Positions 31,011-63,643 are shown, numbered from the stretch's first letter. The stretch is DNA of 64,000 bases from Candidatus Omnitrophota bacterium (GCA_963662715.1 OY759724.1:986662-1050661), one strand, 5' to 3'. Numbers and translations: made by a program. Notes: generated by a model not told the origin, from the sequence alone.

Positions 31011-31139
31011 AATGATCTCCTTATTCCTTAAATAACAATCTTTGATTCTTTGAAATACCCGACACCTCAACAGCATGCATCGCAATTCAGCCCCCGGACT
31101 TTATCAAAAGCGTTTCGGCTTAACCCGCAAGAATAGAAG

Positions 31140-45714: not shown

Positions 45715-46502
45715 AATAATTCCCTCTTTCGAGCAACAATTTTGATAACTTCAAAAGTCGCCTGTATTCCCTGCTGTGATTTAAATTGAGATTTATAGTA
45801 CTGATCCGCCGCCGCTAAACCTTCCCTGCCTATAAAAAACGTCCCGTTCATCGTGTTGGCGCCGATAGCTTTAAGCCAGCGCAGCAAATCCAGCAAATCC
45901 GTAAAAGGTCTCCGGCTGTTTTGTCTCTGCTGCCTGATGATCTGAAACCCCTGCCCTTGCAGGGCCGAAAGGACAGACTCCCCCTCCGGCAGGCGGGATG
46001 TCAACGGGACACTCCGGCCCGGTATAGACGGAAAGGCGTTTTGAAATGACTCGTACATTTCCCAAAGGGTTTCCCGGGTAAACAATGTGACATACAACTC
46101 CCCGTCCTTTCCCAGGACCCGGTAAATCTGGCGGAAAGACGCCGAAAGGTCCTCAACCCATTGATAGGCCAGGTTAGAGACAACCAGATGAAAAACATTA
46201 TCTTTAAACGGAAGGTGCGCGGCATCCGCCTGTACCGCCTGAATGCCCACCCGGTTTTTTCTGACGAAATGAGCCATGCCAAAAGCCAGGTCCATGCCCA
46301 CCACTCCGGCGCCGGGGAAAGCCCTCTGCAGTTCCTGGGTCATCCACCCGGTGCCCATTCCGACATCCAGCAGGAACATGCTGTCCCGCCGAGACGGGAT
46401 GTCCGCCAAAAGGTCCCTGCCGATGTCCTGCTGAAGAGCCGTATGCTGATCATAACGATGCGCTGAGCCGGAAAAAGCTTTTTGAATATGTTGTTTGTTC
46501 AT
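45711..46502 (-). CDS. bioC: Malonyl-[ACP] O-methyltransferase BioC
   Basis: It has the SAM-binding motif LDVGMGTGWMT, is 263 aa, and sits inside the bio operon. Confidence 0.85.
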   Translation of the reverse strand: MNKQHIQKAFSGSAHRYDQHTALQQDIGRDLLADIPSRRDSMFLLDVGMGTGWMTQELQRAFPGAGVVGMDLAFGMAHFVRKNRVGIQAVQADAAHLPFKDNVFHLVVSNLAYQWVEDLSASFRQIYRVLGKDGELYVTLFTRETLWEMYESFQNAFPSIPGRSVPLTSRLPEGESVLSALQGQGFQIIRQQRQNSRRPFTDLLDLLRWLKAIGANTMNGTFFIGREGLAAADQYYKSQFKSQQGIQATFEVIKIVARKRELL

Positions 46503-46520
46503 GACCCTTCTCTCTTTAAT

Positions 46521-47387
46521 TCATGCCGTTATCCCGTCAACCGCGATATAAGCCGTTAAAAATCTTTCGAGCGTATCATTAAATTCATAAGGCTTTGTTA
46601 AAAAGGGGAAATGACCGCATTCGCCGAGCCAATCCAGCCGCACTTGCGGATTCTCCTTTTTAATATTCTGCAGAAGAGGACGCGGGCAGATGTAATCTTC
46701 TGTTCCGTTAATCATCTGCACGGGGATAGGGCATTGGGACAGAACGGGGCGTAAATCCGCCGTAGCGATAATATCAAGAAAAGATATGAGAGCTTCGCGC
46801 TGCGGGGCTGTCTCCTGCCGACGGAAAGTCTGAATCCATTTATACCGGCGGCCTTCACGTTCCGTTTGCGTAAATAATGAACGGAAAAAAACCCTCACAA
46901 TGGAAGGGTAAGCTGTCTGGATTTGCCCTTTCAGCTTCAGCACCCGCGCCAGGGTCAGACCGCATAAAAAATCTTCACTCTGCACAAATTTCGGCAATGC
47001 CCCGACAAAAGCCAAGGCTTTAATTCCCGCCGCTTCCTGCTCGGCCAGGCTTAACGCCACCAGCCCTCCGAAAGAGCTCGCGACAACCCCCCATCTGCCA
47101 CCGTCTTTCTGAATGAACAGTTCGAGAATATCCCGGGCGATATCCGGCAGGGATACCGGCTGCCATTCCGTCTGACCGTGCCCCGGCAAATCAAGGGAAA
47201 TAACCCGGTATTTCCGGGAAAAATACTTGTGCTGCTGCCGCCAAATCCGGCCGTCAACACCCCAGCCGTGCAGAAATAATAAGGCCGGGCCGTGCCCCTC
47301 CTCTTCATAATGCCATCGCATACCGCGGGAAGATGTTAAATAAGACATAAGTCCCTGCCTATCTTTTGCATTTTCTGAATGAGACAT
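46521..47387 (-). CDS. bioH: Pimeloyl-[ACP] methyl ester esterase BioH-like alpha/beta hydrolase
   Basis: It has LLFLHGWG and the nucleophile elbow VASSFGG. The start is ambiguous. The ATG at 47387 has RBS AAGAGGA but overlaps bioF by 52 nt. The alternative ATG at 47321 (MRWHYEEEGHG) aligns with the E. coli BioH N-terminus. Confidence 0.75.
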   Translation of the reverse strand: MSHSENAKDRQGLMSYLTSSRGMRWHYEEEGHGPALLFLHGWGVDGRIWRQQHKYFSRKYRVISLDLPGHGQTEWQPVSLPDIARDILELFIQKDGGRWGVVASSFGGLVALSLAEQEAAGIKALAFVGALPKFVQSEDFLCGLTLARVLKLKGQIQTAYPSIVRVFFRSLFTQTEREGRRYKWIQTFRRQETAPQREALISFLDIIATADLRPVLSQCPIPVQMINGTEDYICPRPLLQNIKKENPQVRLDWLGECGHFPFLTKPYEFNDTLERFLTAYIAVDGITA

Positions 47388-48508
47388 TCACAATCCTCTT
47401 GTGAATGTCTGGCCGTGACCGTCAGGCGCAACCGGGCGGTCCTGGCCGGAACCGTCGGAGGGCGGATAGCCGAGACAAGAATACCTTGCTCGAACAACCG
47501 GCGGGAAAACGTCAATGCGCGTTCCTCCTCCTTGATCAAGACGGGGATGATCGGGGTGCGGGAATGCATCGTATCAAAGCCCAAATTTTGCAAAGACTCT
47601 AATACAAAACGGGTGTTTTTCCACAAAGTTTTCCGCCGCTCCGGTTCTGTTTCCAGGATGTCCAGAGCTTTTAACGAGGCCGCCGCCACCGCCGGGGGCA
47701 ACGCCGTGGTATAGACAAAGCTCCTCGCTTTGTTTATCAGGAAGTCCATCAAACATTTGGACCCGCAGCAATACGCCCCAAAAGAGCCCAAAGCCTTTGA
47801 GAGGGTTCCCATCTGAATATCGACGTCTTGCGAGCAGTTGAAATGCTCTGCCGCCCCTTTTCCTTTTTCCCCTAAAACCCCGGTGCCGTGCGCGTCATCA
47901 ACCATCACCACCACCCCGTATTCCCGGGCCAAACGGATGATCTCATCTAAAGGAGCGACATCCCCGTCCATGCTGAAGACAGATTCGGTTATAATGACCT
48001 TCTTTTTACAGCCCCCGGAACGCTGCAGCAAACGCTCCAGGGCCTGCATGTCCCGGTGCGGATACCTGCGAAAAGAGGCCCGGCTTAAAACAATCCCGTC
48101 CAGAATAGAAGCATGGTTTAACCGGTCACAAAGGATAAGGTCTCCCCGGCCGAATAAAGACGATATGATACCAACATTCGCCATATATCCGCAATTAAAA
48201 ATTAAACAACTTTCCGTTCCCTTAAAAGCCGCCAGCCGCTCTTCCAGTTCCCGGTGCTCCGACAATGTCCCGCAGACCAGACGGGACGCCCCGGAGCCAA
48301 AACCCGACCGGGTTAAAGCGCTTACGGCCGCCTCTTTCAGACGGGGATCGGCGGCCAGGCCGAGGTAATTGTTGGAGCAGAAATTCAGGTAAGCTTTCCC
48401 TCCCATCACAATGGTCCGGTCCTGCGCGCCGTCCACGCATCGCAAGGAACGGCGCAGATTCTTCCTGTCCAAATCGGCCAGTTGTTCTTTTAAGAACGCA
48501 TCAAGCAT
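47336..48508 (-). CDS. bioF: 8-amino-7-oxononanoate synthase BioF
   Basis: It is a class-II PLP aminotransferase of 390 aa with BioF motifs, including the PLP lysine region GTLSKALGSFG. Confidence 0.9.
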   Translation of the reverse strand: MLDAFLKEQLADLDRKNLRRSLRCVDGAQDRTIVMGGKAYLNFCSNNYLGLAADPRLKEAAVSALTRSGFGSGASRLVCGTLSEHRELEERLAAFKGTESCLIFNCGYMANVGIISSLFGRGDLILCDRLNHASILDGIVLSRASFRRYPHRDMQALERLLQRSGGCKKKVIITESVFSMDGDVAPLDEIIRLAREYGVVVMVDDAHGTGVLGEKGKGAAEHFNCSQDVDIQMGTLSKALGSFGAYCCGSKCLMDFLINKARSFVYTTALPPAVAAASLKALDILETEPERRKTLWKNTRFVLESLQNLGFDTMHSRTPIIPVLIKEEERALTFSRRLFEQGILVSAIRPPTVPARTARLRLTVTARHSQEDCECLIQKMQKIGRDLCLI

Positions 48509-48564
48509 AGCCTCTCCCTGATGTCATGCCGCAACCCGCATGCGCGTCAGGCTGCGGCCCTCCG

Positions 48565-49521
48565 TTATATCAACTCAACATCCCCTGTCATTCGGGTAAT
48601 AAGATCACCGTCTTCATTCAGGATCACCAACCCGCCTTCTGCAGACAAATCAACGGCCTTCCCCTCAATAATCCGATGATGTTCAGAGAGGCGGATCCGC
48701 CGTCCGATCGTTATGGATAACGCCTTCCACCGCTCGATCACAGGGGAGAAGTCACGGGCCTGCAAGCAACCGTACCAGTATTCTGTCTTCTGCAGGACAT
48801 TCTGCAGAAGACAAATTCTTGACACTTTATTTCCCGATTCCATTTTCAGGGATGTGCCCCGGGGAGGAAGATGAACTTTATCGGCATTGACATTCATGCC
48901 GAGCCCGACAATAACAAATTTCACCCGGTCTGTTTCGGCATTCATTTCCGTTAAAATTCCCGCGACTTTTCTCCCTCCGATCAGCACGTCATTAGGCCAT
49001 TTAATCGCGGCCTTAAGCCCGGTTGCTTCCCGGACCGTCTCGCAGACGGCTATCGCCGCCACAAAAGTGATCCACCCCACTTCCAGCGGTGATAAATCAG
49101 GCCTTAATATCAGGGAAGTGTAAAGCCCTTTTCCTTTAGGGGAAATCCAGGTCCGGCCCAGCCGTCCACGCCCCCGGGTTTGGGATTCTGCGCAGACCAG
49201 CGTCCCTTCGGGACTTCCCTGAGCAGCCAGGCGGAACGCCTCATCCATCGTGGAAGAGATCGTTTCATAATAATAAACTGTCCGGCCCAGCCGTTCTGTG
49301 GCCAGGCCCGCGAAGATTTCTTCCGGCAATAATTTATCAGGACAGGATTTCAGGTAATATCCCCGGTGAGGAACCGCCTCAATTTTATAGCCCGCCAAAC
49401 GCAGGTCCCGGACATGCTTCCAGACCGCCGCCCGGCTTATCTTCAAGTGCCGGCTTAATTTCTGCCCGGAAACAAATGTCTTGTTGGACTTGAGATACTG
49501 TATGATCCTTTCCTGAACCAT
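48565..49521 (-). CDS. birA: Bifunctional biotin--[acetyl-CoA-carboxylase] ligase and bio-operon repressor BirA
   Basis: It has an N-terminal winged HTH, a central biotin ligase domain (GRGRLGRTW) and a C-terminal SH3-like domain. Confidence 0.9.
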   Translation of the reverse strand: MVQERIIQYLKSNKTFVSGQKLSRHLKISRAAVWKHVRDLRLAGYKIEAVPHRGYYLKSCPDKLLPEEIFAGLATERLGRTVYYYETISSTMDEAFRLAAQGSPEGTLVCAESQTRGRGRLGRTWISPKGKGLYTSLILRPDLSPLEVGWITFVAAIAVCETVREATGLKAAIKWPNDVLIGGRKVAGILTEMNAETDRVKFVIVGLGMNVNADKVHLPPRGTSLKMESGNKVSRICLLQNVLQKTEYWYGCLQARDFSPVIERWKALSITIGRRIRLSEHHRIIEGKAVDLSAEGGLVILNEDGDLITRMTGDVELI

Positions 49522-49579
49522 GAGCCTACCCCTTGTGATTTTTTAAAACCACACCAATATTATCTTTCTTCCGCCAAAA

Positions 49580-49610
49580 TGTCAACCAAATCTACAAATT
49601 AAGTTTACAA
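49580..49610. promoter_or_regulatory. Putative BirA operator (bioO): TGTCAACC-N15-GTTTACA, whose reverse complement TTGTAAAC...GATTTGGTTGACA closely resembles the E. coli bioO
   Basis: The site lies about 60-90 nt upstream of the birA start codon. The half-site and spacer geometry match bioO as I recall it (TTGTAAACC-N16-GGTTTACAA). Confidence 0.45.
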
Positions 49611-49670
49611 TAACCCGCGGAGGGGGCCGGCGCCCCGCGGGGCGTCCCAGACAGGATTCTCAACAGCTCA

Positions 49671-49699
49671 TTGACAAAAATAAAAGCCGATGCTATAGT
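49671..49699 (+). promoter_or_regulatory. Near-consensus sigma70 promoter (TTGACA-17-TATAGT) driving tRNA-Ala
   Basis: The -35 sits at 49671-49676 and the -10 at 49694-49699. The tRNA begins about 15 nt later. Confidence 0.45.
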
Positions 49700-49714
49700 G
49701 ACAAAAAATTTACC

Positions 49715-49790
<76 letters not shown>

Positions 49791-49810
49791 CTTTCAAACC
49801 TTTCCAATCA

Positions 49811-50206
49811 TTGAAGACTTTTCGGATCATATTATTTATAGGAATCATTGAAATCCTCATCGGCGGGATAACGCTTTTGGGGACAGGGGGAGCTTTATTG
49901 CTTTCGTCCAATACAAAACCCCCGAACGTCCTGTTTTTTGTTGTTGGGGCCGCCAGCATATCCTTATCTATCGGCGTAGGAATTCTAAAATTCAAAAAGC
50001 TCGCCTACCAGGCTCTGCTTTATTTTGCTTCCGTGGTCCTCTTAAGCAAAATTTTGATCTTTTTGGGGATCATTCATTTGAACGGGGCCTTGGAAACAAC
50101 GCTCCCCCCCTCCATGAAAAACGGCATCTCGATCATCTATCATGCCTTTGTCATCTATTATTTAAGTCAGAAAGACATAAAAAAAATTTTCCATGTCTGG
50201 CCCTGA
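49811..50206 (+). CDS. Possible small hydrophobic protein (TTG start) downstream of tRNA-Ala; doubtful
   Basis: The track ORF 49742..50206 begins inside the tRNA. The first plausible start after the tRNA is TTG at 49811 with no clear RBS, and the product is strongly hydrophobic. It could be spurious. Confidence 0.2.
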   Translation: MKTFRIILFIGIIEILIGGITLLGTGGALLLSSNTKPPNVLFFVVGAASISLSIGVGILKFKKLAYQALLYFASVVLLSKILIFLGIIHLNGALETTLPPSMKNGISIIYHAFVIYYLSQKDIKKIFHVWP

Positions 50207-50380
50207 GGATCATCGTCAGAATGAACGGACCGGAACGGGTTTCCGCTCAAATGGGATAAAACCGGTCAGATATTGATTTTCACAACAGATTGTTGTATAT
50301 TAATGAATCTAAAAATCATAAAGAAAAGCCTGTTATGATTCGGCCGGTCATGATTTTCTGACATACGGTCATAGATTCCT

Positions 50381-50464
50381 GCTGGAGTGGCGGAATTGGT
50401 ATACGCGCTGGTCTCAAAAACCAGTGAGGGAAACCTCATGAGGGTTCGACTCCCTCCTCCAGCA
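50381..50464 (+). tRNA. tRNA-Leu (anticodon CAA), long variable arm, no encoded CCA
   Basis: The acceptor GCTGGAG/CTCCAGC is perfect. The anticodon stem CTGGT/ACCAG carries loop CTCAAAA. The long variable arm is TGAGGGAAACCTCA and the T-arm is GAGGGTTCGACTCCCTC. Confidence 0.9.
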
Positions 50465-50525
50465 CTTTTTATTATACTGCCCGAACAACAAAGAGTTTAG
50501 AGAAACCCTTTCCGGGACTCTTCCT

Positions 50526-52034
50526 TTGACCGTTATGCGTCATTTCAAATCTTTCCTAACCCTCTCAAGTCTGTTTATCATCAACGTCCTCCTGAGGTTC
50601 CGTTTCATCAGTCAAGGGCCATATCATATTGACTGCGTGACCATGGCCCGGCAGGCCCAGTTAACCCTGCAGACCGGACACCTGCATTATCTGCACAGCC
50701 ACGGTTTTCCCTTAAGTGCGATGATCGCGGCCGCAAACGTCTGTCTGGCCCGGCTCTGGGGCACAGCCGATCCTGTCGATGCGGTCAATATCATGAGCGT
50801 CTTTTTCAGCGCACTAAGCGTCCCTCTCTTTTACCTGGTTGTCCGCAAACTGACAGAGCCATTAACCGCCCTGATCAGCGCCGTCCTGTTTTCGGTCAGC
50901 CCGATATTCTTAAGCCTGTCTGTTTTCGGGAACACCAATGTTTTAAGCCTCTTTTTCTGTCTCTTATGTTTCTACCGGATCATCGATCACAAAGACAACC
51001 CTTCTCCGGGCAAGACAATCGCCAACGGGTTATGCCTGGGGTTATGGGGCGCGGTCCGCATTCAGGATTTCTTAAGTTTGCTGCCGGTGCTTCTTATTTA
51101 CAGCGTCCTGTTCCATCCTCCGAAAAAGACAAAAACGTCCCATATGAAAGCCTTCGGCTTTTCTGTGCTTATTGCCTTTATTGTGACAGGGCTCTTTTAT
51201 GTCCCGTTTTTAACCCGGCATCTTGAACCTTCCGCGACACAATCATTAGGACATTTTTGGGAATTCGAGGTCGGCAGCCGGCTTTTCATCCTATCAGCAA
51301 GGTTTCTGTTCCTGTCTCTGATCTACTGGGCCGACAATTTTCTGCTGCTGGGAATCCTTCTCGCCGGATTAGGGCATCTGGTCCTGTGGCAGAGCAACAG
51401 GAAATTACTGTTTTTTCTGCTGAGCTGGTGTTTGATCCCGCTTCTTTTGTTCAGCCGCCTGGATATTGTCATGCCCCGGTTCTTTTTATGCGCGGTCCTG
51501 CCCCTCTATGTGATGCAGGGCGCTGTCCTGGCTTTTCTTTGGAGACGGAGAGCGCTTTTTAAAATCATCGCCATCTTTGTCATTATCCTGTCCGTCTGGC
51601 TGAATTTATACCGCATCGTGCCGGTGATCCAATACCGGCACGATCATGCCGTCGTGCCTGATTATGTCCTCTGGCTCAAAGAAAAAACAGAATCAAACGC
51701 CTGCATGATTCCCGGAGATGAAGGAGATTTCCTCCGGTATTATCACGGACCGGATTTGTTGGAACTTCGCTTGAAGATCCGCACCCCTTATTCCGGGGAA
51801 GAACTAAGAAAGATGAAACGCCAAATCGACCAGGAATTAGGCCGGGGACACCCGGTATATATCAATTACATTACGATGAATTCGCATAATCCGAAAAAAC
51901 AATTTTCAAATCTCCTCTCCCGACATTATACTTTAATATGTATAGGTGAAAAACTCTATGAAGACTGGCACCGGGGCGCCATGTATCAATTCATTTACCC
52001 TGTTGCCGTTTATAAAATAATACGAGAAAAATGA
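50526..52034 (+). CDS. Polytopic membrane protein, paralog A (suspected GT-C-like polyprenol-phosphate-sugar dependent glycosyltransferase; family unknown)
   Basis: The 502-aa product has about 11 predicted TM helices. A conserved first-loop motif, GPYHIDCVTMA, and a C-terminal soluble domain of about 130 aa are present. It is 30-35% identical to the next gene over its full length. Confidence 0.7.
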   Translation: MTVMRHFKSFLTLSSLFIINVLLRFRFISQGPYHIDCVTMARQAQLTLQTGHLHYLHSHGFPLSAMIAAANVCLARLWGTADPVDAVNIMSVFFSALSVPLFYLVVRKLTEPLTALISAVLFSVSPIFLSLSVFGNTNVLSLFFCLLCFYRIIDHKDNPSPGKTIANGLCLGLWGAVRIQDFLSLLPVLLIYSVLFHPPKKTKTSHMKAFGFSVLIAFIVTGLFYVPFLTRHLEPSATQSLGHFWEFEVGSRLFILSARFLFLSLIYWADNFLLLGILLAGLGHLVLWQSNRKLLFFLLSWCLIPLLLFSRLDIVMPRFFLCAVLPLYVMQGAVLAFLWRRRALFKIIAIFVIILSVWLNLYRIVPVIQYRHDHAVVPDYVLWLKEKTESNACMIPGDEGDFLRYYHGPDLLELRLKIRTPYSGEELRKMKRQIDQELGRGHPVYINYITMNSHNPKKQFSNLLSRHYTLICIGEKLYEDWHRGAMYQFIYPVAVYKIIREK

Positions 52035-53563
52035 AAAAAGAACATCCTCCGGCATGGCTCATAGCCGTCATCCTCGGCAGCCTCAGTCTCGTCATGCGGC
52101 TGGCGGTTATCAGCCTCGGCCCTTTTCATGTGGACTGCCTGAATCTTGCGGTTAAAGCCCAGAACACATTACACCATCATCAGCTTCATTTCCTGAACGG
52201 AACGGGCTACCCGTTAACGGTTTTATTAGGATCGCTTTTCGTGGCCTTGACAGGATTTGCCGGTAATAAAGACCCTGTCTTTGCCGTGAATTTCATGAGC
52301 GTTGTCTTAAGCTCTTTAGCGATTGCCTTTCACTTCCTGTTCGTAAAGGATTTCCTGACCCGGAAAACAGCCATTTTCAGCGCCATTGTCTTTTCGGTTT
52401 TTCCTGCGTATTTAGGGCTGTCCACTTACGGAAAAAGTCATATCCCCAGCATTTTCTTCCTGTGTTTGGGGCTGTTGATCCTTCAACAATATCTGCAGAC
52501 GGGTAAACGTTCTTTATTCTTCTTCAGCATAGGATGCTTCGGATGCATGGGGGCTTCCCGGGTGCAGGAATATGTGTTTTTAATCATCCCTGTCACCGTT
52601 TTCGTCTGGATCATGTTTAAACAAAAAAAGGGCCACCCGTCATTGCGGCAGAAGAGCCAGCTCTTCTGGCGGGACAGCCTTGGGCTATGGACCGGATCGA
52701 CCGTCTTCGCTTTTCTCTTTTATGTCCCGCTGCTGATCGACGCTCCCCGGACAGGGTATTTCATCCAGCTGAAAGGATACTGGGATGTCAGCACCTCTCC
52801 GAACTTTTTGGGACTCCTTTCCCCGTCGCTTGCTGAAAGTTTCCGCATTATCTTTTTCGGCCTCACACCCATCGGATCGATCACGGCCCTGCTGGGATTC
52901 CTTCTCATTCTGAAAAAGGATAAATACAAGGCGCTTTTTCTGGCCGTGTGGTTACTCCTGCCCTTGCTCTTTCTGGGAAATCTTTCCATGACAACGACAC
53001 GCTTTATCATGATCTGTATAATCCCGCTCTTTATCTGCGCGGGTTATTTCTTCGCCCATCTCTACTCCTTCCCGAACTCTTATTTCCGGCTCCTGTCTTT
53101 TTTTGTTTTCTCTCTTATTACGGTCACAATGTTTGTCAATATTTATCCGGTGCTCCTTTTCCGCCATCAGCATGCTCTCCTGCCTGATTTCGCCCGCTTT
53201 GTCCAGCGCGTCACCGAACCTTCGGCAAAGATCATCGCCGGGGACGAAACACCTTTTATCATATATTACGGTAAAAGAGAGATCGGCTTTCGTCCCTTCG
53301 AGGCCGCCAAAATTCCGCAATCCCAACTCAGGGATTTCCAGCGGCGGCTTGACGCCTTGCTGGCACAAGACACACCCGTTTACATTACATCCTCCGGACT
53401 TCTAAGTTATGATCCCGAAAAAAAGTTCTCCTCATTTGTACAAAATCATTATCAGCTCGATTATGTCGGAGAAACTCTTTCGGAAGGATGGCATCAAGGA
53501 GTGACACGGTTACGCATTGGCGTGGAGAAACTCTATAGAATCCGGCCCAGACAGACGGAATAA
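52031..53563 (+). CDS. Polytopic membrane protein, paralog B (tandem duplicate of 50526..52034)
   Basis: The 510-aa product carries GPFHVDCLNLA in the equivalent loop. Its start codon overlaps the upstream stop (ATGA coupling), and the architecture is the same as paralog A. Confidence 0.7.
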   Translation: MKKEHPPAWLIAVILGSLSLVMRLAVISLGPFHVDCLNLAVKAQNTLHHHQLHFLNGTGYPLTVLLGSLFVALTGFAGNKDPVFAVNFMSVVLSSLAIAFHFLFVKDFLTRKTAIFSAIVFSVFPAYLGLSTYGKSHIPSIFFLCLGLLILQQYLQTGKRSLFFFSIGCFGCMGASRVQEYVFLIIPVTVFVWIMFKQKKGHPSLRQKSQLFWRDSLGLWTGSTVFAFLFYVPLLIDAPRTGYFIQLKGYWDVSTSPNFLGLLSPSLAESFRIIFFGLTPIGSITALLGFLLILKKDKYKALFLAVWLLLPLLFLGNLSMTTTRFIMICIIPLFICAGYFFAHLYSFPNSYFRLLSFFVFSLITVTMFVNIYPVLLFRHQHALLPDFARFVQRVTEPSAKIIAGDETPFIIYYGKREIGFRPFEAAKIPQSQLRDFQRRLDALLAQDTPVYITSSGLLSYDPEKKFSSFVQNHYQLDYVGETLSEGWHQGVTRLRIGVEKLYRIRPRQTE

Positions 53564-53769
53564 TCCAGAATCAACAATGGTCTTTCCTGAAACCCGCCAC
53601 AGACGGCTCAAAGGGAAAGACGGACTTGTTCTTGCCCCCACATTCCGGATTTTGGTTAAGTTAAGATCGTGAATCTTTTCCGGTTGTCCCCCTGGGGACA
53701 CTTCTGCCATAACTTACTGTGTTCCAAATAGTCAGAGGGACCCGGTCCCTCTTCCCCTTGCCTCTTTAA

Positions 53770-54363
53770 ATGATCAATGTTAAACTATATCTAATGAAAA
53801 TATTAAGATTATATACTTCATTCCTCCTGATGGTCTGGCTCCTTCCCTCTCTGCCTTCGCAGGCGCAAGAGGACCCTGCGACGGCCAAAATTCCAGTGCA
53901 GATTATCAGCCTGAAAGACGGCTCCCTAATCAGGGGACGGTTGATCGGAGTTGAAAACGGAAGTTATATCATTCAAACCGAACATCTGGGAGAAATCAAA
54001 CTTAATCCTGATGATATCAACAACCTGGCCACAAACGCCCCAAGCAGTCCAGCCGCTCAAATCAAAACACTTCAGAGTTCAACGGGAGAGCTCGTTGTCC
54101 CGCAGTCAGGATCAACAGACGCACTGAAAGCCGTACAAGAGACCCTGCTGACTGATCCGAAACTCTTTTCTCTTTTGCAGGAATTAATGATGGACCCGGA
54201 AGTCGTTCAAATCATTCAAAACAGCTCTTTGCAGCAGGATCTTATGACCATGGATGCGGAAAAGATTCAAAATAATGCCGATTTCCAAAAACTGCTCCAA
54301 CACCCCAAGATTCAAAAAATCATCAGAACATTTGAATCCGAACACCTTTCTCCGAGTCAGTGA
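53770..54363 (+). CDS. Secreted hypothetical protein with S/T/P-rich segment
   Basis: It has an N-terminal signal peptide (probable start MKILRLYTSF at 53797), followed by NAPSSPAAQIKTLQSSTGELVVPQSGSTD and a Q-rich C-terminus. Confidence 0.55.
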   Translation: MINVKLYLMKILRLYTSFLLMVWLLPSLPSQAQEDPATAKIPVQIISLKDGSLIRGRLIGVENGSYIIQTEHLGEIKLNPDDINNLATNAPSSPAAQIKTLQSSTGELVVPQSGSTDALKAVQETLLTDPKLFSLLQELMMDPEVVQIIQNSSLQQDLMTMDAEKIQNNADFQKLLQHPKIQKIIRTFESEHLSPSQ

Positions 54364-54420
54364 CCGCTGACGGTTCCTTTCCTCCGCAACAGACGCCTTA
54401 AACAAATTTCCCCCCGGCGG

Positions 54421-55122
54421 TCATGACTTTTCCTCCCGGCGGAACCACAGTTTCACAGTGCTGAGAAGCACTCCCGGGCCGTGACGCAGGATGGAAAACG
54501 TTCCCCCGCCTTTATCAAGATAACGCCCAGGGATTTCCCGGAAAGGACATCCTTGCCTTTGTATCTGCATGATTAGTTCAATGTGGATATCAAACCCCCG
54601 GGCCTGCAGAGAAATTTTATCTAAAGCTCTCTGCGATATAGCGACTGTTCCGGAGCCGATATCGCAAATGGGGACATGAAACAATATCCGACAAAATCCG
54701 TAATAAAGGCGGCTGGCCAGCTTTCTTAGCCAGGGGACCCCGGCCCCCCGTCGGGATAAGTAGCGCGAGACAACAACAAGATCATGGGTTTTATTGAGGG
54801 ATATTACTTCCGGGAGAACTTCAACGCCAAACGGCAGGTCGATATCACAGTAAACAACGGTTGCCCCTTGTGCTTGCTGAAAAAGACGCCTGAGAGTTAC
54901 CCCCAAACCAAGGTTTGCGTGATTGGCGCTATACGTCAGTTGAGGATATTCTTCTGCAAGCCGGCGGATGGTCTCTAAACTGTCATCGGCGCTGCCGTCG
55001 TCTCTTAATAAAATTTCATACGTCCACGGCTGTTGCCCGCAAAATTGTATTAACCGGCGGATGGATGGCTCGATAAAATTTCCTGAATTATAAACGGGAA
55101 TGACAATCGATACATTAAGCAT
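54421..55122 (-). CDS. GT2-family polyprenol-phosphate glycosyltransferase (DPM1/GtrB-like)
   Basis: GT2 motifs are present: SIVIPVYNS, DDGSADDS, DxD (CDIDLP) and the LASRLYYG region. Start refined to ATG at 55122 (MLNVSIVIP). The track ORF start at 55383 overlaps the upstream gene. Confidence 0.8.
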   Translation of the reverse strand: MLNVSIVIPVYNSGNFIEPSIRRLIQFCGQQPWTYEILLRDDGSADDSLETIRRLAEEYPQLTYSANHANLGLGVTLRRLFQQAQGATVVYCDIDLPFGVEVLPEVISLNKTHDLVVVSRYLSRRGAGVPWLRKLASRLYYGFCRILFHVPICDIGSGTVAISQRALDKISLQARGFDIHIELIMQIQRQGCPFREIPGRYLDKGGGTFSILRHGPGVLLSTVKLWFRREEKS

Positions 55123-55204
55123 AGGGTTGACGTCTCCGACGAATACCTCTGAGGCATGGCTCTTTCGACGTGAACCGCGCCGCAGACCATGCTGTTTGTT
55201 ATAT

Positions 55205-57004
55205 TCAGGGACGGTCTTGCTGGCCCTGGAGAAAGGACTGCACCTGCAACAATAATTCCCCTGCTTCGACAATTCTGCCCTGTCTTTTAAAAAGCAAGAC
55301 AGCATGATTGAGCATCTCCCGGATATTCTCTTCCTCTCCCAAGTGGGCATAAACGCCCGCAAGATTAAAATAGGCCTCGGCAAATTCCGGGTTGAGTTCT
55401 ATCGCCCGCCGGTAAGCCTTGACGGATTCGTTTAAAAGCCCGGATTCAAAATAAACCGGCGCGATAGAAAAATAAAAATGGGCTTCTTCCGGGTTAAGCG
55501 AGATGGCTTTTTTAAACGCGTCTAAAGCCTGTTCCCACTGCCCCTCTTCAGCATAAACAATACCAAGATTATTGTGCATAAACGCACTCTGCGGATTATC
55601 GCGGACAACAGTCTCATATAATGTGGGATTATCACGCCAGTCCTTATTTCTGATCCATGTTCTGGCGGCGTAGAATATAAGAATGACCGCCATGCCTCCG
55701 GAAACGGTTCTCCGGAGCCAAAGGCGGTCGGAAGACAACGCCTTGTCTGATAATTTTACGAAAGCATATCCCAACAGCAGGCAAAATGCCCATGAACCGG
55801 GGTATAAATATCTTTCCGCGAAATAAACAGAACTGGGCACGATGTTGGCGCCCGGCAAAAGCGACAGGAACAGCCACCCGGCACAAAAACCAACGAGAGG
55901 TCGTTTCCTGCCCGCAAAAAATGCTGAGAGAAGAACGATCACGATAACCGCCAGCGCCCGCAGGACATAAGGGTCCGCGACCGACTGGGACAAAACAGCC
56001 GTCGCGTCAAAATCATCCTGGTCAAAAGCGAAAATCCCCGGGGAGAGCACGGGGTTGTGCGTGAGCTGCCAGGGGAAAATCAGGACAGAGACATATCTTG
56101 CCCAAGCCTTGACAATGACCCAGAAGGTTAAAAGATAGCTTCCCATGAGATACCCGCCGCGGGTTATCGTCCCCAGGACCTGCCATTTACAGAAAACATA
56201 AACCAACACTAAAAGGAAATATGGAAGCAGTTTAAGCAGGCTCTCCCTGAACGGTGGCCGGTTGCGGGTAAAAAACAATTCATAAAACGCGAACAATAAA
56301 GGAAGGGAAATCGCCAGTTCATGGGTAAACACGGCCAGAAATGCAAATCCGAAAGCCAGTCCTTTTTCTTTGCCCGCCTGCGGTTCTTCGTTTTTCAGAG
56401 ATCTTTTGTCCTGGATATTATTCCAAGACTTTCCTTCACCCCAAAAGACCGGATATAAACCCTGGTGCCGGTTTGCTGACAAGTAAAAATAAAAGCTCGC
56501 CAATAAGAAGACAATACCTAATGTATCCACACTGGCCGTCATAAACGTGACGGCCTCCACATGTACCGGATGCAGGGCGAACAGCAGCGCGGTCCAAAAC
56601 GCTGTCTCCCGGCGGTTCAGCAATTCATAAGTCAAAAGATAAACAAATAAAATACCGAGCGCGTGAATGCCCAAGGCCGCCAGATGATACCCGAATACGT
56701 TATATTGCCATAAATTAAAGTTGATGGCGTGCCAAAATGTCTTTAACGGCGAGTAAATACCCGGCTGTCCGTCCGGGGGGATATACCCGACAAAGAACCT
56801 CGGGAGGTTCCGCATATCCTGAATCAGCGGCCAGCGGACAATAAAATCAAAATCATCCAAAACAAATTGATTGCTGAAAATATTGCTAAAGACAAAAAGG
56901 GTGATGAGTAAAATAAAACTTACCGCCCAAGACGAATTCTGCAGCATTTTCGTCCAGAACCCTGCTGGTGTTGTCTTCGTTCTCTTCTGGGTCTTTTTTA
57001 CCAC
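55205..57004 (-). CDS. TMTC-like GT-C membrane glycosyltransferase fused to C-terminal TPR repeats
   Basis: The N-terminal domain of about 400 aa is polytopic and has an FVLDD motif in the first loop, which is the DD motif of GT-C O-mannosyltransferase-like enzymes. The C-terminus holds four or more TPR units (AFMHNNLGIVYAEEGQWEQALDAFKKAISLNP ...). Confidence 0.75.
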   Translation of the reverse strand: MVKKTQKRTKTTPAGFWTKMLQNSSWAVSFILLITLFVFSNIFSNQFVLDDFDFIVRWPLIQDMRNLPRFFVGYIPPDGQPGIYSPLKTFWHAINFNLWQYNVFGYHLAALGIHALGILFVYLLTYELLNRRETAFWTALLFALHPVHVEAVTFMTASVDTLGIVFLLASFYFYLSANRHQGLYPVFWGEGKSWNNIQDKRSLKNEEPQAGKEKGLAFGFAFLAVFTHELAISLPLLFAFYELFFTRNRPPFRESLLKLLPYFLLVLVYVFCKWQVLGTITRGGYLMGSYLLTFWVIVKAWARYVSVLIFPWQLTHNPVLSPGIFAFDQDDFDATAVLSQSVADPYVLRALAVIVIVLLSAFFAGRKRPLVGFCAGWLFLSLLPGANIVPSSVYFAERYLYPGSWAFCLLLGYAFVKLSDKALSSDRLWLRRTVSGGMAVILIFYAARTWIRNKDWRDNPTLYETVVRDNPQSAFMHNNLGIVYAEEGQWEQALDAFKKAISLNPEEAHFYFSIAPVYFESGLLNESVKAYRRAIELNPEFAEAYFNLAGVYAHLGEEENIREMLNHAVLLFKRQGRIVEAGELLLQVQSFLQGQQDRP

Positions 57005-57129
57005 TCGGCTATTCTTCTGCAGGTGACAGTTTAACGTTAAAAACGGCCCCGTGAACCACAGCGTTAAAATTATATCTCAACAATATTTGTTTCACAAGCA
57101 ACTCTCTTTGGGATAGCGCTTGCGCCCCC

Positions 57130-58182
57130 TTAAGCCTTCCCCCGGGTCCTTAGCTGCCCGCAGGCCCCGGAAATGTCCTTCCCGCGCGGCCTGCGAAGGG
57201 TCGCATGAATGCCGACGCGGTCAAGCCGCTCCTTAAAGGCAGATATTTCATGCCCGGACGGGGCTTGAAAATCAAATTCCCTGACGGGATTATAAGGGAT
57301 AAGATTCATCTTGCACAGGACGCCTTTAAAGGCTTTCCGCAGCGCCTGAACCGCTCTGTCCGTGCACGTCACATCCTTGATAAGGATATATTCAAAAGTA
57401 ATCTGCCGGTTCGTTTCTTTGCTGTATTCCCGGCACACTGTCATCAAATCATCAAACGGATATGTCCTGTTAACAGGCATCAGGGTATTCCGGGAGGCAT
57501 TATCATAACCGTGCAGAGAAATAGCCAGTTCAAGCTGAAGCCCCTCTTGGGCCAATTGTTTCATTCGGGGGATGACTCCGCAAGTCGAAACAGCAATTCG
57601 TCGGGCACCGATGTTCAAACCTCTTTTATCGTTAACGATCCGGATGGATTTCATAACGTTCTGAAAATTGTCAAGGGGTTCGCCGACCCCCATATAGACA
57701 ATATGCGAAAGCGGCTTTTTATGCTTTCGGGCCTCTTCTTTGACATGCAATATTTGCGTTATGATCTCTGCCGCGGAAAGATTTCTGGTCCATCCGCCGA
57801 TTCCGCTGGCACAAAAACGGCATCCGAATTTGCAGCCCGCCTGAGTTGACAGGCACACGGTTGTGCGAGTCTTGGAGGGAATTAAAACTGTCTCAATTCT
57901 CTGACGGTCGTCCAATTCGAGAAGGAACTTGGTTGTCCCGTCTTGAGACACCTGTTTGTCTGCGATTTTCAGCGGTTTTAAAATGAACTGGCCGGCAAGA
58001 TGATCCCGCAGGGCTTTCGGCAGGTTTTTCATGTCATCCGGGGACCAAACGCATTTGCGGTAAAGCCACTCGAATATTTGTGTGGCCCGGTAGGGCTTTT
58101 CTCCCCAGCTTTCCAAACACTGGACAAGGTCCTTGTAAGATAAATCCTGAAGCTCTTTTCTTTTTGGGGTCGTCTCGGTCAT
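57130..58182 (-). CDS. rlmN: Dual-specificity RNA methyltransferase RlmN (23S rRNA m2A2503 / tRNA m2A37), radical SAM
   Basis: It has a CKFGCRFC cluster and RlmN length. Start refined to ATG 58182 (MTETTPKRK) with RBS GGAAAGGG. The track ORF uses GTG at 58224. Confidence 0.9.
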   Translation of the reverse strand: MTETTPKRKELQDLSYKDLVQCLESWGEKPYRATQIFEWLYRKCVWSPDDMKNLPKALRDHLAGQFILKPLKIADKQVSQDGTTKFLLELDDRQRIETVLIPSKTRTTVCLSTQAGCKFGCRFCASGIGGWTRNLSAAEIITQILHVKEEARKHKKPLSHIVYMGVGEPLDNFQNVMKSIRIVNDKRGLNIGARRIAVSTCGVIPRMKQLAQEGLQLELAISLHGYDNASRNTLMPVNRTYPFDDLMTVCREYSKETNRQITFEYILIKDVTCTDRAVQALRKAFKGVLCKMNLIPYNPVREFDFQAPSGHEISAFKERLDRVGIHATLRRPRGKDISGACGQLRTRGKA

Positions 58183-58298
58183 ATCCCTTTCCCGAAAATA
58201 CGTCTGCAGCCTATGAAATCTCACTCACGTTTTTAATAAACATATTCTGGAATGGAGGGTGCGGGTAACGGGGAAATTCTGCTGAAAGGACATTTCCT

Positions 58299-59285
58299 TT
58301 ATCCGGACTCAGAGTTAGCCATATCAGCGGCACTGTTTTCAATAAATTCTCCTATACAACGGAATTTATCATAACGTTCCTGCATCAATTCATCCTGGGA
58401 CTTGGATGACAAATCTTTTATAGCCTTGAGTATGACCTTCTTCATATTTTTTGCCACAAAATGCGGATCATGATGAGCGCCGCCCGGGGGTTCGGGGATG
58501 ATATCGTCCACAATCCCGAATTTCTTTAAATGTTCTCCGGTTAGTTTCAAAGCATTGGCGGCATCAGGAGCTTTTACGCTGTTCCGCCAGAGAATCGAAG
58601 CGCATCCCTCCGGGGAAATCACGGAATAATAGGCATTCTGAAGAATATAAACCCGGTCCGCCACCCCGATCCCGATCGCACCGCCGCTCCCGCCTTCACC
58701 GATGATAACCGCAACGATCGGGGTCGAGACCAAAGCCATATCTCTTAAATTTGACGCAATCGCCTGGGCCTGGCCCCGCTCTTCCGCTCCGATGCCCGGA
58801 TAAGCTCCCGGCGTGTCAATGAACGCGACAATGGGCAAACGGAATTTCGCGGCAAACTGCATCAGCCGGATCGCCTTGCGGTACCCCTCTGGATGGGCAC
58901 AGCCGAAATTTCTCATAATATTCTCTTTAATGTCACGGCCTTTCTGATGGCCCATAATCACCACTTTATACTGGTCAATCTTGGCCAGACCGCCGATCAG
59001 GGCCCGGTCGTCAAAAAAAAGCCGGTCACCGTGCATTTCGATAAAATCAGAAGCCAGCATATGAATATAATCCAATGTGTAAGGACGGGCCGGATGCCGG
59101 GCAATTTGAACCCGCTGCCATTCGGACAAATGGCTGTAGATGTCCTGTTTCATTTTTTCCAGCTTTTGTTCGAGCTTCTTAATCTCCGGCTCAATATTGA
59201 TTTTCTTGTTTGTCCCAAAACTTTTTAGCTGTTCAATCTTCGCCTCAAGCTCAATAATAGGCTTCTCAAAATCTAACCCGTTCAT
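58299..59285 (-). CDS. accA: Acetyl-CoA carboxylase carboxyltransferase subunit alpha
   Basis: The N-terminus MNGLDFEKPIIELEAKIEQL is typical of AccA, with a crotonase-like CT domain. Confidence 0.95.
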   Translation of the reverse strand: MNGLDFEKPIIELEAKIEQLKSFGTNKKINIEPEIKKLEQKLEKMKQDIYSHLSEWQRVQIARHPARPYTLDYIHMLASDFIEMHGDRLFFDDRALIGGLAKIDQYKVVIMGHQKGRDIKENIMRNFGCAHPEGYRKAIRLMQFAAKFRLPIVAFIDTPGAYPGIGAEERGQAQAIASNLRDMALVSTPIVAVIIGEGGSGGAIGIGVADRVYILQNAYYSVISPEGCASILWRNSVKAPDAANALKLTGEHLKKFGIVDDIIPEPPGGAHHDPHFVAKNMKKVILKAIKDLSSKSQDELMQERYDKFRCIGEFIENSAADMANSESG

Positions 59286-59323
59286 ATGTGTTTACCACCT
59301 CTTAAATGTTAACGACACGTTCA

Positions 59324-60142
59324 CTAATCGACAATCACAACCTCTGTCCCCATAGGAATAAGGCTGTAAAGCTCCTCAACTTCCGAGTTTCTCATCCGGA
59401 CACATCCGGCGGTGACATGCTGGCCGATGGTTTCCGGCTCAACCGTCCCGTGAATGCCGTAGCCGGGGATATCAAAACCGAGCCAGCGCGTACCCAGAAC
59501 ATTCTCCGGACTCTCCGGCGGCACGATGACACCCCGGTTAAACCATACCGGATCGATGAGTTTTGACACAATCTTAAATGTCCCGACAGGCGTGCTCATA
59601 TTCTCTCCGGTGGAAACTAGATAAACTTTTACAATCTCGTTTCCATCTTTAAGGATCAGAACATTCTGCGACTTATCGACAAAAATATTAAACTGACCTG
59701 TCCATACATACAACTTCTGCCCGACTCTTATCACATCGCTTTTCAAATTATTCCTTTTTTTGATAAGCTCAACCGTTGTCCCGTAGCGTTTGGCAATCTC
59801 TCCCAGCGTATCTCCCGAGACAACCTTGTGCGTTACGGTCTTCCCCGGGACAGAGGTGGTCGAGAAAATAATATTCATGTTCAGCTCTTCCAAATCTTTC
59901 TGAACATTCATAATATTATCGTAGTCAGGGTATTGTTTGAGTATTTCCTGGTATAAAACTCTCGCCTTAACATAATCCCCGGTCTTTTGAAAATTGTTCG
60001 CCCTTTTATAAAGATCAGAAACATTAATTTGCTTAACGGGTGGCTGCGCGGCAGGAGAAGGGGTTTTAGCTCTGAATAACGTAATCCATAACACGACGAG
60101 GACAACAACGGTTCCGCCTATGATTACAAATCGATTATTCAC
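59324..60142 (-). CDS. L,D-transpeptidase (YkuD) with LysM domain and N-terminal membrane anchor
   Basis: It has a LysM motif (VVSGDTLGEIAKRYGTTVELIKKRNNL) and the catalytic motif YGIHGT...GCVRM. Confidence 0.85.
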   Translation of the reverse strand: MNNRFVIIGGTVVVLVVLWITLFRAKTPSPAAQPPVKQINVSDLYKRANNFQKTGDYVKARVLYQEILKQYPDYDNIMNVQKDLEELNMNIIFSTTSVPGKTVTHKVVSGDTLGEIAKRYGTTVELIKKRNNLKSDVIRVGQKLYVWTGQFNIFVDKSQNVLILKDGNEIVKVYLVSTGENMSTPVGTFKIVSKLIDPVWFNRGVIVPPESPENVLGTRWLGFDIPGYGIHGTVEPETIGQHVTAGCVRMRNSEVEELYSLIPMGTEVVIVD

Positions 60143-60194
60143 AATTCCGCTCCTTTTATTAACGGGTAATTCTTGATCTGTTTAAACGGGGGTA

Positions 60195-60704
60195 TTACCG
60201 GCCCCACATGTCATAAAAAATGATCGACATGAAGCAGCCGATGATGGAACCGATAACGACCTGGATGGGAGTATGACCGATGAGTTCTGCCAGACGGTTC
60301 GTTTCAATTTTCCCCTTCCAATAAATATCATCAAGGATTCTGTTTAATATCTCGGCCTGCTGTCCTGTTGCGCGACGGACGCCCTGGGCATCAAACATCG
60401 TCACCATGGCAAACACCGCAGACAAAGCAAAAATCACGGAATCAAATCCCCGCTCAAGACCGACGGCTGTTGCCAAGGCTGTTACTCCTGCCGCATGGCT
60501 TGACGGCATGCCGCCTGTTCCGATAAACCATCTGAAATTAAATTTTCTCTCTCGTATGACCCCAAGAAAGACTTTAATGCATTGGGCTAAAGCCCAGACA
60601 GTGAGAGTAATAACCAGGATTTTGTTACTGAAAATTTCTTTAAAAAGAACGATAAAGATTTCCATAATTAAATAGGATACGGGGCTTTGAGCTTTATGCC
60701 CCAT
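60195..60704 (-). CDS. Divergent PAP2-family membrane protein (DUF212-like)
   Basis: The GGMPSSHAAGVTALATA motif is present with 4 TM helices. The start is uncertain (60704 or 60665). Confidence 0.7.
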   Translation of the reverse strand: MGHKAQSPVSYLIMEIFIVLFKEIFSNKILVITLTVWALAQCIKVFLGVIRERKFNFRWFIGTGGMPSSHAAGVTALATAVGLERGFDSVIFALSAVFAMVTMFDAQGVRRATGQQAEILNRILDDIYWKGKIETNRLAELIGHTPIQVVIGSIIGCFMSIIFYDMWGR

Positions 60705-60906
60705 CAGTTTTCAAAAATTTACTCATAACAGGAATCCCCGGAACAGTATTCAACCCGCCGCGAATTGAGAAATGCCTGGTGGGATTATACTGCGCAAAGT
60801 CCGGGATATCCTGTTGAGTCAAAATTTGACATGTTTCTGGATTTATGTTAGTTTACATTATAATTTTGCTTAACCAAAAAAGCAAGGTCTTTAATATTCT
60901 TATTTC

Positions 60907-60930
60907 AATATTTCTATTTATAGAAATATT
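60907..60930. promoter_or_regulatory. Perfect 24-bp AT-rich palindrome (AATATTTCTAT-TT-ATAGAAATATT) between divergent genes
   Basis: Read directly from the sequence. It lies about 80 nt upstream of the comM/yifB start and about 200 nt upstream of the PAP2 gene. Confidence 0.3.
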
Positions 60931-61008
60931 TTTAGTAATCTTCCCCTGATTATAATCATTCCCCGCCAGCATACTTAACACTAAACTAATAACAGGCTAT
61001 CTCCCAAT

Positions 61009-63563: not shown

Positions 63564-63643
63564 TCTGTCGATATCCCCCATAACTGGACGGTGTTCGGCA
63601 AAGCCTATTCGCCAGGAAGATTGCTCCTCGAAAACAGATCATG

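Follow-up and report, generated by a model that had tools for sequence, protein, structure and literature searches.

A conserved gene module of Candidatus Omnitrophota predicted to act in periplasmic glycosylation from polyprenyl-phosphate sugars

Introduction

Which process is served by five consecutive genes that lie beside a tRNA-Leu gene in a Candidatus Omnitrophota bacterium? The genes are part of a stretch of 64,000 nucleotides (GCA_963662715.1, OY759724.1:986662-1050661), referred to here as the window, in which all positions are counted from the first letter. They encode two tandem polytopic paralogs (PAR1 and PAR2), a small secreted protein (S), a family 2 glycosyltransferase (GT2), and a glycosyltransferase of the GT-C type fused to tetratricopeptide repeats (TPRs), which we call GT-C/TPR. 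A sequence-only reading of this DNA had proposed a lipid-linked glycosylation pathway, and its core, a polyprenyl-phosphate-sugar synthase encoded beside GT-C transferases working at the periplasmic face of the membrane, agrees with the folds, motifs and gene linkage reported here. We consider it moderately probable that the module is a polyprenyl-phosphate-sugar-dependent periplasmic glycosylation system of this bacterium, in which GT-C/TPR has Ser/Thr residues of proteins as acceptors and S serves as an accessory.

Results

A TPR-fused GT-C enzyme resembling TMTCs

The AlphaFold (AF2) model of GT-C/TPR (pLDDT 94.7) comprises 11 transmembrane (TM) helices, starting from a cytoplasmic N-terminus, and finds its nearest solved folds in ArnT, STT3 and PMT. 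The motif FVLDD, which the sequence-only reading had pointed out together with the C-terminal TPRs, is located at residues 47-51 in the first periplasmic loop (EL1), and the TPRs, which are real according to Pfam, comprise about 3.5 predicted periplasmic repeats (residues 459-596). The short loops contain 15 Lys and Arg residues inside compared to 4 outside, in line with the positive-inside rule. Based on this charge rule and the model, the FVLDD loop and the TPRs are predicted to face the periplasm, with the N-terminus in the cytoplasm. Within the motif, all of the 82 GT-C/TPR relatives compared have D51, and at least 90% of them have D50; among the 26 closer ones, neither residue varies. Further motifs and residues are LLFALHPVHVE, D160, E229, and FAERYLY (containing R398); the latter as well as YSPLK(88)T in EL1 are invariant or nearly so, with YRP in distant relatives. 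In Pfam, GT-C/TPR matched TPRs only and not PMT_2, a family that was matched directly by 9 of the 82 relatives. A profile alignment (hhalign) of its membrane domain with the PAR family, at 97.4% probability and E 9e-12, shows the two to be homologous. Some relatives with 42-45% identity have been named 'protein O-mannosyl-transferase' by JGI.

This architecture is shared with the eukaryotic protein O-mannosyltransferases TMTC1-4 (GT-C/PMT clan; PMC7801869), which likewise possess 11 TM helices, a cytoplasmic N-terminus and non-cytoplasmic C-terminal TPRs. The likeness extends to an Asp pair just after TM1 (D52/D53 of TMTC1, D50/D51 here), to the EL1 motif Y-[SR]-P-L-K (SHKSYRP in TMTCs), to LLFA-x-HP-[VI]-H (LLFAVHPIHT in TMTC3) and to AER before TM10 (AERV in EL5 of TMTC1), and in both cases the solved folds that come nearest are ArnT, STT3 and PMT. 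However, while human TMTCs match DUF1736, which covers the TM7-TM8 loop, at E<1e-30, no match at E<=0.1 was obtained for GT-C/TPR, and the domain was absent among the top 25 families matched by its 82 relatives. Furthermore, the DW pair of EL4 in TMTCs reads D-F here (D331-F332), only about 3.5 TPRs are present, and the enzyme would operate in the bacterial periplasm instead of the endoplasmic reticulum, its donor presumably being an undecaprenyl-type phosphate sugar made by the product of the adjacent gene. The description as TMTC-like therefore stands for the topology and the shared DD, HP(V/I)H and AER motifs, but not for DUF1736 and the DW pair; we regard it as a fair functional analogy, with membership in the TMTC family not established. 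Prokaryotic TMTC homologues have been acknowledged, and the transferase activity of TMTCs in animals was inferred, not reconstituted (PMC7801869).

Compared by description, the closest characterised bacterial analogue of GT-C/TPR is TfpW, the pilin D-arabinofuranosyl transferase of Pseudomonas aeruginosa (bioRxiv 10.1101/2020.04.19.049825). TfpW starts in the cytoplasm, is predicted to have 11 TM helices, carries a periplasmic DDX motif and a large periplasmic TPR domain, finds its best template in ArnT, and glycosylates a protein. It differs in its donor pathway, which supplies decaprenyl-phosphate-arabinofuranose from phosphoribosyl pyrophosphate, and in the position of tfpW directly downstream of its substrate gene pilA, whereas no pilin gene lies near the module. 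Likewise, neither a pilin nor another obvious substrate is encoded near a second GT-C/TPR paralog found in a related genome (locus L028), the neighbours of which are a B12-binding radical SAM enzyme (6172-7818) and an APH-family kinase. B12-binding radical SAM genes recur beside GT2 or GT-C/TPR at four other loci (L016, L020, L029 and L031).

A putative donor synthase encoded downstream

GT2 is a soluble GT-A glycosyltransferase of 233 aa with a DXD motif (C-D-I-D-L) that is conserved in its orthologs, and it matches Pfam Glycos_transf_2 with 68.3 bits. Its best relatives in the PDB are the Pyrococcus dolichyl-phosphate-mannose synthase (5mlz, 3.3e-14), GtrB (5ekp, 1.2e-10) and ArnC (1.5e-9), in accordance with its earlier description as DPM1/GtrB-like. 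Among NCBIfam models, ArnC ranked first (51.7 bits against a cut-off of 529), and PgfS was matched at 2.3e-13. These similarities, which are at class level only, suggest a polyprenyl-phosphate-sugar synthase of the DPM1/GtrB/ArnC type. The orthologs measure 229-248 aa, apart from one of 274 aa, are encoded directly downstream of GT-C/TPR, and share a conserved C-terminal amphipathic helix; a hydropathy scan of the 233 residues of GT2 revealed no TM or hydrophobic segment. C-terminal TM helices are present in GtrB, ArnC and archaeal dolichyl-phosphate-mannose synthases and absent in human DPM1, mycobacterial Ppm1 and PpgS. We take GT2 to resemble this latter, TM-less subtype.

Two additional GT-C enzymes

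PAR1 and PAR2, correctly recognised by the sequence-only reading as tandem paralogs of about 500 aa with 11 TM helices, are 31% identical across 488 aa (E 3e-68). About 11 TM helices were found in each, judging from hydropathy, the AF2 model of PAR1 (pLDDT 86.7) and the charge distribution; for PAR1, model helices and charges fit an N-terminus inside and a C-terminal domain outside. This domain, which follows the 11 helices, is a periplasmic alpha/beta domain of approximately 130 aa, and the architecture of PAR2 is the same. With 39.2 and 32.8 bits, respectively, PAR1 and PAR2 exceed the gathering threshold (26.1 bits) of Pfam PMT_2 (PF13231; GT39/GT83-like). Moreover, PAR1 lies above the cut-off for the STT3 N-terminal model (30.4 versus 24.5 bits) and PAR2 above that for the TMEM260-like model (24.8 bits). 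Annotation at the family level is thus possible, and the genes are not unannotatable as had been stated.

The PAR1 model was compared with PDB structures using Foldseek, which yielded PglB (1.2e-9), STT3, ArnT (5f15, 3.5e-8), ALG12, AftD and PMTs, the matches to PglB and STT3 having E-values of about 1e-9 and TM-scores of 0.56-0.63. At E<=1e-3, almost every one of the 36 matches is a GT-C enzyme, and DPY19, a C-mannosyltransferase, accounts for the others. A transporter or another protein without glycosyltransferase function was considered for the paralogs and rejected, since no transporter is among these 36 matches. No solved structure is close to the family in sequence: a phmmer search of PAR1 against PDB sequences returned no match, and the best match of the PAR family profile is AglB at E 0.003.

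The H-x-D-C motif noted earlier in the first loop reads HIDC in PAR1 (as G-P-Y-H-I-D-C) and HVDC in PAR2. In an alignment of 24 PAR family members, 23 of which cover this region, the motif takes the form G-P-[YF]-[HN]-x-D-[C], with the Asp kept in 23, the His in 18 and the Cys in 17 of the 23 sequences. The Asp (D36 in PAR1) is a candidate catalytic residue; its loop, like the loop with D50/D51 of GT-C/TPR, is predicted to be periplasmic, so that conserved acidic residues are found in the first periplasmic loops of both enzyme types, as had been anticipated. Two Arg residues are conserved as well, R178 in the third periplasmic loop (EL3; 23/24) and R318 in the fifth (EL5; 24/24), while D398, Y406, V444, Y445, E479, W481 and H482 are invariant in the C-terminal domain. 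R318 and, within AER, R398 of GT-C/TPR are the conserved equivalents of the lipid-phosphate Arg whose role has been described for TMTC, ArnT and the oligosaccharyltransferase (PMC7801869).

The GT66 oligosaccharyltransferases STT3, AglB and PglB include the best fold matches of PAR1 (PglB and STT3), and like them PAR1 continues past its final TM helix into a periplasmic domain. In contrast to GT66 enzymes, the C-terminal domain of PAR spans only about 130 aa and contains a conserved E479-x-W481-H482 (E-x-W-H) instead of WWDYG, and the NCBIfam model archaeo_STT3 gives 21 bits against a cut-off of 450. Because GT2 is adjacent, a monosaccharide-phosphate donor appears more plausible for PAR than a diphosphate-oligosaccharide.

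Single-copy PAR homologs elsewhere are 35-43% identical to PAR2 and 31-34% identical to PAR1. The PAR1 type alone is kept at two loci (L003 and L006), and the majority of the others hold a PAR2-like copy. A recent tandem duplication was ruled out, the two types being old subfamilies that were differently retained. One PAR2-type homolog (P0008, 42% identical to PAR2) stands isolated from the module (L004, 5990-8275; L005, 3532-5817), where its gene divergently adjoins that of a PagL-family lipid A deacylase/outer-membrane beta-barrel protein, a hint that some PAR family members may act on lipid A.

Conservation of the module across Omnitrophota

Related genomes were scanned for GT-C/TPR, starting from the 26 closer sequences, and 46 loci were annotated with local hidden Markov models; 27 informative Omnitrophota loci form the basis of the following counts. 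GT2 lies directly downstream of GT-C/TPR, on the same strand and abutting or often overlapping it, in 22 of the 27 loci, which bears out the co-occurrence of GT2 and GT-C genes predicted by the sequence-only reading. S is present in 20 and PAR in 15 of the loci. Between RlmN and tRNA-Leu, the copy number ranges from 0 to 2 for PAR, from 0 to 2 for S and from 1 to 3 for GT-C/TPR. The enzymes are kept without S at four loci (L012, L021, L026 and L033) and at L004, which holds PAR only.

The module occupies the same place throughout the phylum, within a syntenic block that reads DUF212-YkuD(/LysM)-AccA-RlmN-[module]-tRNA-Leu-(small open reading frame)-tRNA-Ala-BirA-BioF and continues with a BioH-like gene (window 44000-62000; L001-L035). 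It also remains grouped at six loci where the RlmN flank is missing (L010, L018, L029, L030, L031 and L046), and at L003 PAR, S and GT-C/TPR occur together in an unrelated context without GT2. By comparison, second GT-C/TPR paralogs of the same genomes (L024 and L028) are accompanied by neither GT2, S nor PAR. Beside the GT-C/TPR relatives of other phyla (L034-L044), neither S nor PAR is encoded, and GT2 was seen there only as a weak downstream match at L040 and as a GT2-containing open reading frame (ORF) that divergently adjoins the L037 copy.

The tRNA-Leu gene stands beside PAR or S in 14 of the 15 relatives scanned and is a conserved module boundary in Omnitrophota, not a functional part of the module. 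A genomic island at this tRNA was considered and found unsupported, as the module is in the same place phylum-wide, no integrase is present and the G+C content is just slightly lower. Additional genes occur within this region. At L009, the variable part (10672-14554) encodes a YfhO-like protein of 778 aa and a methyltransferase-GT2 fusion. At L001, a relative with 56% identity, a 2073-aa protein with GDE/glycoside-hydrolase-type domains is encoded between tRNA-Leu and PAR1 (3572-9793), and this gene is absent from the window.

Protein S combines a beta-rich and an STI1/DP-like domain

S begins with a signal peptide (MKILRLYTSFLLMVWLLPSLPSQA, cleavage before QE) and likely starts at Met9. A conserved beta-rich domain with the pattern I-x-L-K-D-G-S-x-I-x-G…Y-x-I-x-T…L-G is followed by a variable linker of 30 aa and a helical C-terminal domain resembling the STI1/DP domains. 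For Pfam STI1-HOP_DP (PF17830), S of the window scores 17.4 bits (E 0.0043), below the gathering threshold of 29.1. All seven close homologs match this family (best 9.6e-7), and six of the seven match the ubiquilin STI1 model UBQLN1. In the PDB, the top match of the S profile is the DP2 domain of Sti1 (2llw, E 0.015).

A profile search of 1.84 billion representatives (50%-identity clusters) returned 1019 members of the S family at E<=1e-3, 498 of them at E<=1e-10. The best 150 are nearly all 160-215 aa long and matched along most of their length. S thus belongs to a large unnamed family in which, judging from sequence conservation, selection acts on the folded domains. A metagenome scan anchored on S with very specific patterns found only two close relatives, and a literature search found nothing usable on bacterial STI1 domains or on GT105 in bacteria. 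One match of the S-family profile, P0265, is 1429 aa long, and its DP-like segment (profile positions 140-176) was matched 18 times, which suggests that STI1/DP-like repeats follow one another in a long tandem array. A carboxylate clamp of the TPRs that binds an EEVD-like tail on S was ruled out, since the C-termini of S proteins are neither conserved nor acidic.

Layout of the locus and other features of the window

The coordinates are collected in Table 1. The five genes are indeed consecutive, but the view that they form one system needs to be qualified in that they are not one unit: three genes on the plus strand and two on the minus strand converge, with stop codons 58 nt apart. PAR2 starts 4 nt before the end of the PAR1 stop codon, and PAR1 starts 60 nt after the end of tRNA-Leu(CAA), confirming the position beside this tRNA. 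The extension of the listed GT2 ORF runs into the upstream GT-C/TPR gene. A protein identical to PAR1 over 502 aa is present in NCBI/ENA, and relatives carry the name Omnitrophota.

Table 1. Features of the module and its tRNA flank (window coordinates; tRNA genes from ARAGORN)
Feature	Position	Strand	Description
PAR1	50526-52034	+	502-aa ORF; GT-C glycosyltransferase (PMT_2/STT3-like)
PAR2	52031-53563	+	510-aa ORF; paralog of PAR1
S	ORF 53770-54363; likely gene 53794-54363 (Met9 at 53794)	+	197-aa ORF; small secreted protein
GT2	ORF listed 54421-55383; gene 54421-55122	-	233 aa from conserved ATG at 55122
GT-C/TPR	55205-57004	-	599-aa ORF; TMTC-like enzyme; database version begins at Met20 (56947)
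tRNA-Leu(CAA)	50381-50465	+	
tRNA-Ala(GGC)	49715-49790		
Small membrane protein	49811-50206	+	about 131 aa; between tRNA-Ala and tRNA-Leu; from hydropathy

The small membrane protein is a candidate, by position only, for the missing lipid-sugar flippase. Its hydropathy profile shows three segments (four peaks), four TM helices being an estimate, and DUF4293 is its sole, weak match; it matched neither GtrA nor SMR, and no GtrA, SMR or MATE flippase family was found among the scanned ORFs of the window. As listed from 49742, the ORF overlaps tRNA-Ala, its first 16 codons being the tRNA T-arm, and TTG at 49811 is the likely start. The tRNA-Ala/ORF/tRNA-Leu arrangement recurs in about 10 Omnitrophota loci, and in three loci the tRNAs are adjacent without the ORF. 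Just upstream of tRNA-Ala, a near-consensus sigma-70-like promoter (11/12 matches, with TG) is located at 49671-49699.

Elsewhere in the window, the gene at 34043-36400 (785 aa), which had been assigned to the YfhO family, does exceed the threshold of Pfam YfhO (PF09586; 34.8 versus 28.5 bits), but only its last 80 or so residues align (profile positions 753-835 of 835), the rest being unmatched. Further genes of carbohydrate and isoprenoid metabolism are located upstream (21909-33519) and encode a GH2-like protein with a TPR at 21909-24410, a sugar ABC transporter at 24426-27611, a GH94 phosphorylase at 27816-30389 and a polyprenyl synthetase at 31140-32258, and three sizeable ORFs have no Pfam match (1263-2966, 18495-19820 and 62589-63581).

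Discussion

A proposed pathway and the points against it

In the pathway that we propose, GT2 would use a nucleotide sugar in the cytoplasm to load polyprenyl phosphate with a monosaccharide, as DPM1, GtrB and ArnC do, and a flippase, for which there is a candidate gene only, would export the lipid-linked sugar. GT-C/TPR, presumably co-transcribed with GT2, would use it in the periplasm, with Asp50/Asp51 in the first periplasmic loop as the putative catalytic and metal-binding site and Arg398 binding the lipid phosphate. The sugar would be transferred to Ser/Thr residues of envelope or secreted proteins that are recruited by the periplasmic TPR domain, paralleling TMTCs and TfpW; it is by analogy with these two that we favour proteins as acceptors of the TPR-fused enzyme. 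PAR1 and PAR2, additional GT-C enzymes with a periplasmic C-terminal domain of their own, would probably draw on the same donor pool and serve other acceptors or add further sugars. S would play an accessory part, serving acceptors as adaptor or holdase or being itself, by way of its linker, a privileged acceptor. Of these elements, the folds, the motifs, the predicted topology and the gene linkage are results of this analysis, and the identity of the donor, the flipping step, a protein as acceptor and the part played by S are inferred.

Lipid-linked periplasmic glycosylation by a GT2 and a GT-C enzyme is well known (PMC11127046), and the module resembles the three-component systems described there (GtrA/GtrB/GtrC, ArnC/ArnT and CsbB/GtcA/YfhO) in that the gene of a GT2 synthase lies beside that of an extracytoplasmic GT-C. 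It differs from them in that no GtrA, SMR or MATE flippase is recognisable, that GT2 has none of the TM helices with which GtrB and ArnC end, that the GT-Cs number two or three, come from two families and include a TPR-fused one, and that a conserved secreted STI1/DP-like protein belongs to the cluster. New features are the conserved composition in Omnitrophota, the TMTC-like enzyme with its own TM-less donor synthase, the additional STT3/PMT-like GT-Cs with a distinct periplasmic domain, and the conserved STI1/DP-like partner in a module with no recognisable flippase. A further parallel, with a GT2 encoded together with two polytopic membrane glycosyltransferase-like proteins, is found in the Pgf system, the PgfS model of which was matched by GT2 below its cut-off. 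In Streptococcus mutans, the Pgf machinery consists of the GT2 PgfS and the membrane GT-C-like proteins PgfM1 and PgfM2 and modifies secreted proteins. It is a Gram-positive system that includes an epimerase and has no TPR fusion and no STI1-like partner.

Several observations weigh against the proposed pathway. GT-C/TPR lacks the DUF1736 match of TMTCs, and GT2 reached none of the NCBIfam equivalog cut-offs (ArnC, PgfS, PpgS, AglJ and others), so that its sugar and lipid acceptor are unproven. No acceptor, sugar or flippase was identified in this analysis. S is missing from 7 of the 27 loci and, as the whole block is syntenic, part of the co-occurrence reflects inherited gene order, which makes position alone weak evidence. 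Moreover, pairs of a GT2 and a PMT_2-type GT-C are equally typical of lipid A and lipopolysaccharide (LPS) modification, and one PAR homolog adjoins the PagL lipid A deacylase.

Proteins or glycolipids as acceptors

These last points lead to the main rival explanation, according to which the acceptor is not a protein but a glycolipid or glycan of the envelope, with lipid A, the LPS core, O-antigen or some other polysaccharide as candidates. PMT_2-type GT-Cs would transfer the sugar from the polyprenyl-phosphate sugar made by GT2 to phosphates of lipid A or to a glycan, in parallel to ArnC/ArnT, the Gtr systems for O-antigen glucosylation and other three-component systems, and the TPRs would dock the enzyme to envelope machinery. 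We regard this as possible but doubtful. The placement of PAR1 and PAR2 in PMT_2, a family that includes ArnT, is consistent with it, as are the presence of ArnT among the structural matches of PAR1 and the ArnC model as top NCBIfam match of GT2. However, the GT-C that is directly coupled to GT2 is not PAR but the TPR-fused enzyme with TMTC motifs, and the characterised 11-TM GT-C enzymes with TPRs that we found, TMTCs and TfpW, act on proteins. PAR itself is closest, by sequence and fold, to oligosaccharyltransferases, ahead of ArnT. Three-component systems acting on glycans are widespread (PMC11127046), and the region between RlmN and tRNA-Leu behaves like surface-glycan loci in varying in GT-C copy number and gaining a YfhO-like gene and a methyltransferase-GT2 fusion. 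Nevertheless, no LPS or lipid A biosynthesis gene lies near the module in the window, and the adjacency of a PAR homolog to PagL is a single observation.

Protein S as partner or substrate

If proteins are the acceptors, as we favour, S itself could be the dedicated substrate, glycosylated on a region rich in Ser, Thr and Pro by the neighbouring GT-Cs, which was the version put forward by the sequence-only reading. We consider this unlikely. S does carry a signal peptide and is linked to the enzymes in 20 of the 27 loci as well as, without GT2, at L003, and every homolog has a linker of 15-44 aa with some Ser/Thr and a mean Ser, Thr and Pro content of 30% compared to 16% in the folded parts. 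However, the description of S as rich in these residues did not hold: they make up just 20.8% of its 197 aa, and only its own 30-aa linker reaches about 40% (43%). Linker sequences are not conserved, with as little as 8-11% Ser and Thr in some homologs, whereas selection on the beta-rich and STI1/DP-like domains points to an activity or a binding role. Furthermore, five loci keep enzymes without S, and it would be uneconomical to employ two or three large GT-Cs on a single small substrate. S is secreted, conserved and built of two domains, the C-terminal one STI1/DP-like, and is therefore more likely an accessory or partner than a passive substrate, with glycosylation of its linker being possible.

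A more specific version of this partnership, which we rate as quite improbable, is that S and the TPR domain of GT-C/TPR may form a split extracytoplasmic counterpart of Hop/Sti1, in which TPR and DP domains are combined. S would then be a periplasmic holdase that binds unfolded or hydrophobic segments of envelope proteins and passes them to GT-C/TPR for O-glycosylation.

Finally, that the genes are neighbours through inherited gene order only, each GT-C drawing on donors made elsewhere, would agree with rlmN, accA, birA, bioF and two tRNAs holding their positions around the module phylum-wide, a conserved position not being specific to functional linkage, but is very improbable in view of the operon-like pairing of GT-C/TPR with GT2 in 22 loci, the persistence of the set despite changed flanks (L003 and the six loci without the RlmN flank), the GT-C/TPR paralogs elsewhere that have none of the partners, and the complementary biochemistry of a donor synthase and donor users.

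Significance

With lipid A or LPS as its acceptor, the module would modify the envelope in the ordinary manner of ArnC/ArnT, the TPR fusion of one enzyme being the unusual part. If the split Hop/Sti1 arrangement were true, S would be the founding bacterial case of a periplasmic STI1-domain chaperone that is ATP-independent and dedicated to a glycosylation machine, and TMTC-type O-glycosylation would have a tractable bacterial model in the module. Should the pathway operate as we propose, it would offer TMTC-type glycosylation in a compact bacterial form that brings its own donor synthase and could be expressed and studied structurally. It would also provide a context for the S family, which is large and unnamed and consists of small secreted proteins that carry an STI1/DP-like domain (about 1000 clusters at 50% identity). 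Omnitrophota are a widespread, uncultured phylum with very small, possibly host-dependent cells, and the proposed pathway would define surface or envelope glycosylation in these bacteria.

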